A DNA stretch of 17,379 bases from a virus. Taxonomy: Duplodnaviria > Heunggongvirae > Uroviricota > Caudoviricetes. Of this stretch, positions 1 to 3,000 are shown one piece after another; the stretch's first letter is position 1; each line of letters begins with the position of its first letter. The position numbers are program-made. Location: the IMG/VR virus record IMGVR_UViG_2690316318_000021, positions 1 to 17,379 of that record, one strand, 5' to 3'.

Positions 1-3000
1 TTAAAGCTGCATCAGCCTTTCCACCAGTTTATCTCTGCGAACAACAAACCAACCATTGGCTCTCGCCAGTTCCAGCCATGACTCAAGGGAAATAACAATA
101 TCATCATCCCGCAACTGAATTGTGGAAACAGTGACACCGCCTCGCTGATAACAGAGAACTCGCGTGTCGTAACTTTTCTGGCATGAAGCTGGCGCTGACG
201 GATCCTTTTGTCTGAAATAGCAGTCTTCCAGCTTTTCGAACACATCCCACGCCTGATCGGTTTCGAGCATTTTTGCATGACGGGCTGCTCCGCGTTCTGT
301 CCAGAGGATGAGGGAGCGGGCTTTCGGGGAAATTTGTAACCCTCTTAAAGATGGTTGCAAATTTTGTGAGTTACTTAAAGTAACCCGCAAATTTTGTGAG
401 TAGTTTAAAGCTACCCGCAATTCTTTAAGGTCATTACCAACAACTTTGAAAAAGTGTTTCCCTTCAACGAAGCGTACTTTGTTCTCATGATGATTCTGGC
501 GAATGCGCACCGGCTCAGTGCCGTAAAGCTGCGCCAAAAGTTCGGTGGTAATAACAGGAATCTGGTTATGGGTGATCGGGGAGAGAGTTTCAACAGAAAT
601 TTGAGTTGTCATAATGACGCCCTCTGGTGGTTTCTTAATAACTCACCACCGACGACGCCAATCATCTGGTGGTGAACTGTGCAGGGTTGGCGTAACCGGG
701 AAACCGACCGGCGCGGATCTCTCCGCCCCCACACAGCCCACCATAATTCAGATGTGCGCGTGCATACGACAATAAAAAACACGCTCGCGGCGTGTATCTG
801 TCGCGGTCTCTATCCAGGACGCCAATCCCGACGCCAGATTTTGCTGGCGCGTGAGGAATATAGCCCCGGATAACAGATTGAGTCAACAGACGGTTTTTAG
901 ATCCCCGGAAGAGAATGCATCACGCATCGGCAGATAGAGCATAAACTCTGCCATTTTCAACCACGCATCTATGCGATTACGGCACGTGGCGTAACACCAC
1001 TCAGGGTGTGAATCATTCAGCAATTCAGCCATTTTGCGCTTAGTCATCCCCCTCCCTTCATATCGTTGCCGGAGGATACAAATCAATCCTGGGTGTTCTG
1101 CCAGCACTTCACTAATCACCCGATCAATGCATAACGCCTCTGCATCAGTACAATGCACCAGCCAGCTTTTTTGCTTGCCGTTGATCATATCCCGCAAAAA
1201 AGCCTCAAGTTCAGGTTTGTCCAGACCTGCTTTTTTCATCCTCCGGAGCGCCTCGTTAATTGCCGTTTTTGTCAGCTTTTTAGAGGTCAGCAACTGGTTG
1301 AACATATTTCCCGTCTTACCGCCGCCAATATACGACCAGCGCCCCCACATGCGCAGTTTTCCCTGAATCCAGACACTTTCCAGCGTGGTGAGACGAAGGT
1401 GTTCCCCGCTTTTGCCTGTATTTGTTGGGTAAATCATAAATAACCTTCCTTTCTCCAGATTTCTTGTGTGCGAAAAACACCTTCTGCATGCATCAGGCGT
1501 AATTCTTCTTTGGTGTAATCGCTGGTTTTTACCCGCCCGTCGATTAAATCGTGGCATGAGCTACAGGCAATCGCTGCCTGCATATCGTGTGGTTTTGTCG
1601 CTGTTCCGCACGTCCCCGCCAGCCTGTAATGCGCCAGCACAGAAGTTTCGGGATTGTGATTGCAGTAGCCAGGAATTCTGACGGTGCACATCTGCCCCCG
1701 CGCCGCTTTACGTAAATCCACCATTACGCAAACTCCAGTAACTGCGCGGCCACATTTTCGACTTCCTCCGGAGAGGAAAATTTACGGAACAGGATCCAGT
1801 TCCACAGCACATTAAGTACAGATTTATAAACCTGCTGAAACTCGGTTTCGTCCATGTTCGCAAAAGCAATGGACTTCGCCCGACGCCCGCGGCTACCGTC
1901 TGGATAAAAATGCTCGGTGTAGAAGCCGGCCTGAATGGTCACCCACTCGCGGAAAGCGTCAAATGATTTGAGCAATGCCATATCCTGAGTTCTGCGTGTC
2001 GCAACGGTATTCAGATATTGTTCCGCGGCATCACTCAGAGCTGGCGTATGTTCCCTGCCTACTGATTCACACAGGTAATCAACGAAGCCGAACACCATTT
2101 CTCGTTCGCGAGGTGTGATCGCCCCACCGCTCGGAGTCCAGTAATCGAATCCAAGTTGCAGAAGTTTGAAAAAACGCTTGTGAAATGCATAGTTACGCAC
2201 ACGCTTAAAATCAGCATGTATCCACTCGCCTATTTTGATTTGATGCAGAAAATCGCAACTCTCCGGTGTCGCCGGGAGCAGTAAGCCGGAAGATGTTTGT
2301 TTAACCAGTTGTATATGCGCCATCGTAGTTCTCCGCTGGCGCAGTAGAATGGGTGTTCAGCCCGTTGTGTAGTATACCAGAATCAATGCCAATACTAACA
2401 GGATGCCCTGACTCGCAATTCATCTGGCAATCTATCATTTCCCATAATATCACTATTCCTCATCGGTAAAAAAATTGCCTTGCGACCATTCCGATACATC
2501 ATTGCTTTTTGTGTATCAGGGAAATAATCCATTTCAACAATAACTGACAGATCATCACAACGTATGACTGCAAATTTAGTGCTAAAAGATTCCTGTGATT
2601 TTTTCACGATGCCTCCAAGCCTCTAAGGAAAGAGGTTTATATCTACCTAGAGGCAAAAATATATATACACAGAATGTTTATTTCATGTTGTATATTTGAT
2701 TGTTTAATGTGCAGGTGCAATGACTTTTATTTATTGCCGCGCATATAATCAAATATGTGATCATCTTTCATCCTTCGTATTCGACAGACAATAAAAAACC
2801 CGCCGAAGCGGGTTAGGTGCGGGTGCGTTGAGGATGCCTGACACATCAGAGGTGGCGAGGGATTTCTCCCTCGCCTGGTCTCTTACTCCTCAGGTTCGTA
2901 AGCTGTGAAGACAGCGACCTCCGTCTGGCCGGTTCGGATTCGTACCTCACAGAGGTCTTTCCTCGTTACCAGTGCCGTAACAATGACGGTTAAACAGATG

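Follow-up and report, generated by a model that had tools for sequence, protein, structure and literature searches.

Promoter and terminator behind a Q-like prophage gene: the probable leader of a mobile immI-type antirepressor cassette

The small RNA IsrK was first found in Salmonella (PMC2330248) and has been characterized in the prophage Gifsy-1 (Hershko-Shalev et al. 2016, PMC4825925), where its promoter, P_isrK, yields a 77-nt RNA and some transcripts continue into orf45-anrP as a translationally silent long RNA. Free IsrK pairs in trans with this long RNA and opens the orf45 ribosome-binding site, the antirepressor AnrP is made via translational coupling, and transcription of the antQ operon then goes up; a processed species of ~80 nt, STnc1160, comes from the orf45 region (PMC4825925). 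Here we describe a homologous locus in a 17,379-nt stretch of viral DNA (Caudoviricetes; IMG/VR record IMGVR_UViG_2690316318_000021, positions 1 to 17,379; hereafter the window), in which positions 613-886 carry a promoter and a terminator between a Q-like antiterminator gene and an antirepressor gene. We conclude, with a probability of roughly 0.8, that this segment is the leader of a mobile immI-type antirepressor cassette that has inserted between Q and Q's own module, and that the antirepressor thus lies outside the Q-antiterminated unit.

Related systems have so far been discussed separately. The immI region of P1 and P7 comprises the c4 antisense RNA, icd and ant (Citron & Schuster 1990, as cited in PMC12197685 and PMC8201110). 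The 2016 Gifsy-1 paper leaves c4 unmentioned; it compares the locus with P4 CI/seqA, and its authors liken IsrK to P4 seqA (PMC4825925). IsrK and c4 appear as unrelated entries in a 2025 review. The IsrK promoter has also been called "antitermination-regulated", and StxS is the Stx-phage counterpart of the late-promoter leader RNA (PMC7547250). The elements that we recognize in the window, all on the minus strand, are as follows.

857..886, minus: P_isrK, a sigma-70 promoter with -35 TTGACT (886..881), an 18-nt spacer and -10 TATATT (862..857)
871..863, minus: ATCCGGGGC, the conserved block of P_isrK directly 5' of the -10
774..850, minus: small RNA IsrK, the a1/b1 leader, with hairpin 1 (850..831), hairpin 2 (830..815), b1 (829..819) and the terminator
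837..844, minus: loop of IsrK hairpin 1, GCAAAATC (a1), invariant
795..773, minus: intrinsic terminator of IsrK, stem 795..779 (ACACGC-CGCGA-GCGTGT) followed by the T-run TTTTTT (778..773)
665..748, minus: C4-type antisense RNA with a 17-bp outer stem, two inner hairpins and a single-stranded b' (693..684)
655..661, minus: b2 (core TTGGCGT), located in the leader 40 nt 5' of the antirepressor start, a second target for b' of C4
1..612, minus: ORF6N antirepressor gene, 203 aa, with the Shine-Dalgarno sequence GAGGG at 624..620
883..1437, minus: gene for a Q-type antiterminator of 184 aa (DUF1133 family), a distant relative of phage 21 Q

The RNA elements are recognized by Rfam models, each above its gathering cutoff. 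The isrK model matches over its full length (1-77) at 850..774 with 75.5 bits (gathering 50), c4-a1b1 (RF03163) matches at 863..811 with 50.5 bits (gathering 46.7), and the C4 antisense RNA (RF01695) matches at 748..665 with 66.7 bits (gathering 45), all on the minus strand. Position 1 of the isrK model falls 6 nt 3' of the P_isrK -10 and its end coincides with the terminator; the transcript would start near 850, and transcript positions are counted from there. The Gifsy-1 record contains Rfam isrK, c4-a1b1 and C4 in the same arrangement, and STnc1160, the processed species, is thus the equivalent of a P1-type C4 RNA.

To these matches we can add covariation, for which 28 non-redundant cassettes from viral contigs and genomes were aligned, with slid partners as controls. 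The intramolecular helices (IsrK hairpins, terminator, C4 outer stem and inner hairpins) are paired in 94.8% of cells, as against 35-44% in the slid controls, and 17 of their pairs are changed on both sides. IsrK hairpin 1 is 100% paired with four compensatory pairs, the C4 outer stem is 97% paired with eight, and in C4 inner hairpin 1 all five of five pairs are compensatory. The longer-range pairings are kept equally well: b1 in the loop of IsrK hairpin 2 (+22..+32) and b' (+158..+167) are 98.2% paired (31-53% in the controls) with 26 cells changed on both sides, and b' and b2 (+190..+196) are 95.4% paired (20-38% in the controls) with 24 such cells. Furthermore, b1, b' and b2 switch in concert among four types, TTGGCGT, TTGGAAC, TTGGTCT and TTTGCAC. 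The pairs G28-C162 and G31-C159, which were proven in Gifsy-1 by compensatory mutation (PMC4825925), form here at the same transcript positions, and the minimum free energy fold of +1..+180 contains the b1:b' pairing, matching the published inactive "structure A" (PMC4825925). The identities of the elements and, by covariation, their RNA pairings are established here.

A few observations concern the specificity segments and the a1 loop. Two cassettes (L053 and L093) are hybrids in which the b2 type is unlike their own b1/b' type, and a Salmonella prophage (L010) holds two cassettes, at 790..1039 and 4088..4337, of unlike b-specificity, one of the TTTGCAC type in the nin region and one of the TTGGTCT type after Q. 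The a1 loop GCAAAATC is invariant in 28 of 28 cassettes although b1 varies, and its putative partner, the loop of C4 hairpin 2, is variable and U-rich. The invariance of a1 could reflect a pause element that depends on sigma (SDPE), a protein-binding site or a kissing loop.

The promoter scores 10 of 12 against the consensus hexamers in a promoter scan, and the TGA stop of the 184-aa Q-like open reading frame (ORF), at 885..883, falls within its -35 hexamer; the terminator sits 62-84 nt 3' of the -10. A consensus scan of 3.5 kb returned four promoter-like sites with 4.4 expected, which is not above chance, and seven terminator-like sites with 3.6 expected. However, the core TTGAC plus ATCCGGGGCTATATTCC is retained in 42 unique flanks that represent six kinds of upstream context, and flank similarity stops just 5' of the -35. 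We regard P_isrK as a real promoter because it is conserved across these unrelated contexts and because its Gifsy-1 homologue was tested experimentally, its activity having been demonstrated with lacZ fusions (PMC4825925). The promoter, the 77-nt RNA and the read-through into the antirepressor gene have all been demonstrated for that homologue (PMC4825925, PMC2330248).

By sequence, both flanking genes are what they had been taken for. The product of 1..612 matches Pfam ORF6N (E 5e-19) and the PHROG 2379 anti-repressor family (E 5e-93), and is 52% identical to Gifsy-1 AnrP (BLASTP E 3e-64), with an ORF6N domain in both. The 184-aa protein matches Pfam DUF1133 with 358 bits, Phage_antitermQ (PF06530) with 27.5 bits (cutoff 26), and PHROG 753, "anti-termination protein Q-like", at E 2e-81; a profile of 24 homologues matches the Q21 structures 6P18/6JNX at E 3.4e-6, the next match being at 0.3. 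Judged by these profiles it is a Q-type protein and a genuine distant relative of Q21. A single-sequence AlphaFold model of the protein is unusable (pLDDT 45). The initial annotation was made from the nucleotide sequence of the window, and much of it holds: it had described a Q-like protein, a TTGACT-18-TATATT promoter right after its stop (found at 886..857 on the minus strand, overlapping the stop), a terminator ~60-75 nt downstream (795..773), and an ORF6N antirepressor-like gene at 1-612 into which the module feeds, which read-through would reach here as it does in the Gifsy-1 homologue. It had further likened promoter and terminator to lambda PR'/qut/tR' and, as one of two possibilities, placed the antirepressor under Q; this part finds no support in the comparison with other prophages.

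One indication comes from VT2-Sakai and many Stx phages, whose cassette is 97.6% identical to that of the window over a match that begins exactly at the -35 (886). There the cassette lies in the nin region after a NinE gene, and a separate Q gene follows 2.3 kb downstream. Among 78 assessable cassette instances in viral contigs, the upstream neighbour is a DUF1133 Q in 17, a PF06323 Q in ~15, a PF06530 Q in nine, NinE in 18, an integrase in 2-3, and other genes in the remainder, and the core TTGAC...ATCCGGGGCTATATTCC is identical in all of these contexts. Promoter and leader are thus not co-inherited with one Q family, the same promoter being found after DUF1133, PF06323 and PF06530 Q genes, NinE and integrase. 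At genome loci that encode a DUF1133 Q, the cassette is present in only 3 of 27. Since the cassette recurs from its -35 onward behind three Q families, NinE and integrase, P_isrK belongs to the cassette and not to Q. We also considered that a variable P_isrK spacer might hide family-specific Q-binding elements, and rejected this: the spacers look unlike those found in cognate modules, and a separate variant occurs in NinE contexts. The spacer variation looks like a lineage signal. At the junction itself, the last ~8 codons of Q (SSGDLKTVC, 883..909) are unlike those of cassette-free DUF1133 Q genes (e.g. ...ESFAQKTA), which places the recombination joint within the 3' end of Q; the C-terminal residues of Q21 contact RNA polymerase (bioRxiv 10.1101/651190).

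Cassette-free DUF1133 loci indicate what the insertion would have displaced. There the Q stop is directly followed by TTGnnn-17-TT(C/G)AAT (preceded by TG), then by a leader with conserved blocks and, 45-86 nt further on, a strong AACCCGCC..GCGGGTTTT terminator. All but two of 23 such Q-abutting modules fall into one similarity cluster, which includes the post-antirepressor sequences of this prophage and of a Salmonella relative; P_isrK is outside it, and no similarity was found between P_isrK and the module abutting DUF1133 Q genes. In Rac-SA53, 683R6 and KpF5, tRNA, toxin or lysis genes come after the Q-linked module. The DNA beyond window position 1, which the initial annotation had proposed to check, was followed in a near-identical E. 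coli chromosome (L001; 99.8% identity, window position x being L001 x+12000), where the module is found at the following place.

L001 11986..11874, minus: displaced Q-linked module, 15-127 nt beyond window position 1, with TTGCAA-17-TTCAAT

The module begins 15 nt after the antirepressor stop, is recognized by a match of 89.6% over 115 nt (E 3e-39), and has the conserved leader ACGCTTCGCAAAGCTGTATCGCGAGGCGAA and the terminator GAACCCGCCATTGAGCGGGTTTT, from which an RNA of ~74 nt, so far unnamed, is predicted. A module of this type follows the antirepressor in 16 of 17 DUF1133 contexts and in 1 of 61 other contexts among the viral contigs, and the sequence 3' of the antirepressor generally follows the upstream neighbour, or the Q family. 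Beyond the module, on the same strand, L001 has two small ORFs and then genes for holin, endolysin, Rz1, terminase and head proteins. The P_isrK pair is not the last promoter and terminator before the lysis genes: the displaced module and a second pair just before the holin gene intervene. That second pair, at L001 10850..10723 (minus strand) and outside the window, consists of a promoter-like TTGACT-16-CATATT and a strong terminator GGCCCCGG..CCGGGGCTTTTT just 5' of the holin gene; its terminator may belong to the small gene before it, or the pair may be what is left of a late module.

At the level of sequence, these comparisons establish that the cassette is mobile and that the Q-linked module has been displaced. 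Because this module lies 3' of the antirepressor, the antirepressor is probably upstream of Q control and not under it. The proposed likeness to PR'/qut/tR' loses its support at this point, as the cassette promoter serves three Q families, NinE and integrase, and the cognate module has been displaced downstream. The alternative that the initial annotation had offered, a rearranged late region, comes near to what is found, since a cassette now separates Q from its late module. A loss or rearrangement of the late genes themselves was rejected, as the same strand continues with genes for holin, endolysin, Rz1, terminase and head proteins.

Gifsy-1 offers a second, independent instance of such a displaced module. 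In its record (L152, NC_010392), TTGCAA-17-TATATT lies directly after anrP at 33515..33406 on the minus strand; the 74-nt small RNA IsrJ begins 6-7 nt after this element and ends at the terminator of that module. In Enterobacter and Klebsiella phages that lack the cassette, the IsrJ module overlaps the 3' end of genes annotated as Q, and IsrJ therefore looks like a 6S/StxS-type leader of a Q82-family late promoter. Rfam isrJ gave no match in L001 (E up to 0.1) or in L004 and L010 (E up to 1), so by sequence the post-antirepressor module of DUF1133 prophages is something other than IsrJ; its likeness to IsrJ would lie in position, in size and in the analogy with Gifsy-1.

The overall comparison with Gifsy-1 is close. 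Its antQ-isrK-orf45-anrP-isrJ region has the same order as this prophage, with Q, a promoter on the Q stop, IsrK and its terminator, a C4-like RNA, an ORF6N antirepressor, a second short-RNA module and then lysis genes, and it shares the b-specificity type as well as G28-C162 and G31-C159. It differs in four respects: AntQ of Gifsy-1 is PF06323 (Q82 family) whereas the window Q is DUF1133 (Q21-related), its post-antirepressor module is IsrJ and that of the window prophage is not, its orf45/anrP ATGA overlap is broken here by a 2-nt indel, and the window antirepressor is only 52% identical and has a 10-aa duplication. The two Q proteins had been candidates for a single family, which the assignments to PF06323 (phage 82 type) and DUF1133 led us to reject.

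With P1/P7 immI the window shares the C4 fold, an a1/b1 copy upstream and a b2 copy downstream that are both complementary to one C4 segment, and the antirepressor gene that follows; the switching of specificity types resembles P1/P7 c4 heteroimmunity. There, however, the host element is a plasmid prophage and here a lambdoid one, and here a terminator after a1/b1 frees a separate activator RNA, IsrK, which would activate as its homologue does in Gifsy-1. No icd homologue was recognized, and a2 was not identified. In the P1/P7 system, the C4 target overlaps the ribosome-binding site of icd, whose translation is coupled to ant; RNase P releases C4 from its precursor, and ant is subject to Rho-dependent polarity. 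A lambda-type Q cassette (PR', Q-binding element (QBE)/SDPE, tR', 6S) also has a constitutive promoter abutting Q, a short terminated RNA and downstream genes reached solely by read-through, but the window promoter is not specific to a Q family and moves with the antirepressor, while a separate Q-tracking module lies downstream. P22 immI (sar/ant) and P4 CI/seqA/seqC are similar in that small antisense RNAs gate antirepressor or replication genes within one transcript, yet the folds and sequences of P22 sar and P4 seqA/seqC are different, and no Rfam match to the P22 sar or P4 RNA families was found in the window.

By homology to Gifsy-1 and P1, we propose the following for transcription of the cassette, activation by IsrK, the activity of the antirepressor and the target promoter of Q. 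Constitutive P_isrK (886..857) would start transcription near 850, and most transcripts would end at the intrinsic terminator, giving the 77-nt IsrK that carries a1/b1. Read-through transcripts would hold the C4-type RNA (748..665), b2 (661..655) and the ORF6N antirepressor gene. In this long RNA, b' would form cis pairs with either b1 or b2, while the outer stem of C4 would bury the +107 AUG, so that the antirepressor message stays translationally silent; free IsrK would compete for b' and open the leader, allowing translation of the leader ORF and the antirepressor, which would then inactivate a prophage repressor. The cassette has come to lie between Q and the promoter-like element, leader and terminator cognate to it, a module that survives ahead of the holin, endolysin and head genes.

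It is possible to read the same locus as lambda PR'-6S-tR', with P_isrK as a Q-dependent late promoter, IsrK as a 6S-like RNA, 795..773 as tR' and the antirepressor as the first Q-antiterminated late gene. The promoter does overlap the Q stop and a short terminated RNA does follow, just as in lambda, and an invariant CAAAAT at +8..+13, which keeps A2 and T6 of a -10 hexamer, could be an SDPE. In Gifsy-1, IsrK supplied in trans raised read-through eightfold in cells that also induce AntQ, which may have had a role (PMC4825925). We nevertheless consider this very improbable: three mutually dissimilar Q families as well as NinE and integrase share the promoter and leader, which could hardly contain cognate Q sites for all of them; P_isrK is unlike the module after DUF1133 Q in cassette-free relatives; and a second, Q-family-specific promoter-like element with its terminator lies between the antirepressor and the lysis genes. 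Furthermore, AnrP reportedly induces Gifsy-1 production without a need for P_isrK, going by the legend of S5B (PMC4825925), and this agrees with an antirepressor that lies outside the Q unit. A hybrid in which Q does not load at P_isrK is less easily set aside, although we still find it doubtful. Here, antiterminated polymerases of the early operon, or a global effect of AntQ, would read through the IsrK terminator and yield long a1b1-C4-ant transcripts, so that antirepressor synthesis would follow from early derepression in a feed-forward manner. No terminator separates Q from the cassette, the stop codon being inside the -35, cassettes are found repeatedly between Q and PR' for three Q families, and overexpressed AntQ is reported to disturb termination globally while AnrP raises transcription of the antQ operon (PMC4825925). 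Yet the nin region has the cassette just as often, and it also occurs beside integrase, where such coupling to Q is missing, and its RNA logic operates without Q in plasmid fusions (PMC4825925). An inert cassette, left over in a defective Rac-like prophage and with a promoter and terminator of no current role, is also quite unlikely. The window does resemble a Rac-type prophage (recE, kilR, ralR/RalA, hok/sok), a type that is often cryptic, and the antirepressor gene of a closely related prophage is interrupted by an insertion sequence (IS) element; but the promoter, IsrK, C4, b2 and the full-length antirepressor ORF are all intact, all pairings are preserved, lysis, terminase and head genes follow, and the arrangement is kept at 80% coverage or more in 127 of 5,426 complete E. 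coli genomes.

Several points weigh against the reading that we prefer, in which 613-886 is the leader of a mobile cassette outside Q control. About half or more of the sampled cassettes lie directly behind a Q gene, immediately so in about half, as the Q-dependent reading would have it, and the preference could reflect a functional tie to Q instead of a neutral insertion site; the viral-contig sample behind these counts is also redundant. The promoter of the displaced module was not flagged by the promoter scanner, because its putative -10, TTCAAT, is without the canonical A at position 2, and we infer this promoter from its conserved geometry and the analogy with IsrJ. A conserved TA(C/G)GCT 5 nt 3' of that putative -10 may itself be the real -10, or else act in pausing. 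No element for Q binding or pausing was identified in the P_isrK module or the displaced module, the P_isrK leader offering only the -10-like CAAAAT, which is also the a1 loop; we know of no QBE for the DUF1133 Q family. The duplex energy of IsrK with C4, -52.9 kcal/mol, is not better than that of shuffled sequences (-47.1 +/- 6.1), and that of C4 with b2, -20.1 kcal/mol, shows no gain over shuffles (-20.6 +/- 3.1), so covariation alone serves here as evidence of pairing. Finally, the leader ORF of the window stops at +208, 30 nt before the antirepressor AUG, and the ATGA overlap of Gifsy-1 orf45/anrP is absent. The indel that breaks orf45-anrP coupling means that the last step of activation may differ here.

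Translation of the leader involves two candidate reading frames.

643..744, minus: leader ORF of 33 codons from the +107 AUG, the counterpart of Gifsy-1 orf45 (predicted translation)
609..782, minus: annotated 57-aa ORF whose stop overlaps the antirepressor start (ATGA), phrog_20442, unknown function

The +107 AUG is nearly invariant across the aligned cassettes, and the 2-nt indel relative to Gifsy-1, which is common to VT2-Sakai, shifts the frame of the leader ORF. The 57-aa ORF has a counterpart in VT2-Sakai annotated as orf34 and is probably an annotation artefact of the conserved RNA; its frame could also couple translation from an in-frame GTG at +117 or AUG at +186. In the window, b2 overlaps the AUG at +186, which is not kept across the alignment. 

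The elements themselves have been described before: Rfam has families for IsrK, C4 and c4-a1b1, and the Gifsy-1 locus is known from experimental dissection. What appears to be modestly new is that insertion between Q and PR' recurs for three Q families, the union of IsrK with the C4 system, and the proposal that IsrJ-type RNAs, and not IsrK, are late-promoter leaders. IsrK and P1 c4 would be two halves of one mechanism. We tentatively suggest that the Q/late-promoter junction is a recurrent and possibly selected docking site for immI-type antirepressor cassettes, an idea that we hold with some reserve. If it is correct, two "orphan" small RNAs of Salmonella islands would find a common explanation. 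IsrK would act as a1/b1 decoy in a P1-like C4 antisense switch and would not be an antitermination-regulated product, contrary to PMC7547250; IsrJ and the unnamed ~74-nt RNA beyond the window would be the true 6S/StxS-like leaders of the Q-dependent late promoter; and, through the position of the cassette behind Q, antirepressor release would be a feed-forward result of read-through from the early operon. The equation of a promoter and terminator after Q with PR'/tR', though in the literature for IsrK, is probably wrong for such loci. The real target of Q is likely another short RNA, which matters for mapping the regulation of late genes and toxins in E. coli and Salmonella prophages. In addition, the four or more specificity types predict groups of cross-immunity and cross-induction among co-resident prophages, including Stx phages with the same cassette.

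Elsewhere in the window, Rfam recognizes sok (3033..3206), the hok/sok RNA, RalA (15033..15211), the antitoxin of RalR, and the overlapping pair SraC/RyeA and SdsR/RyeB (16774..16918). Together with recE and kilR in L001, these identify a Rac-like prophage adjoining the ryeA/ryeB locus. In the closest relative within the genome collection (L006; E. coli and Shigella), an IS3-family element at ~4380..5550 splits the antirepressor gene shortly after its start. The antirepressor ORF of the window itself contains a 30-nt tandem duplication at 357..420 (2.1 copies, 85% match), which encodes a repeated decapeptide, LRV(A/T)L(N/S)(Y/N)SQN, that is absent from Gifsy-1 AnrP.

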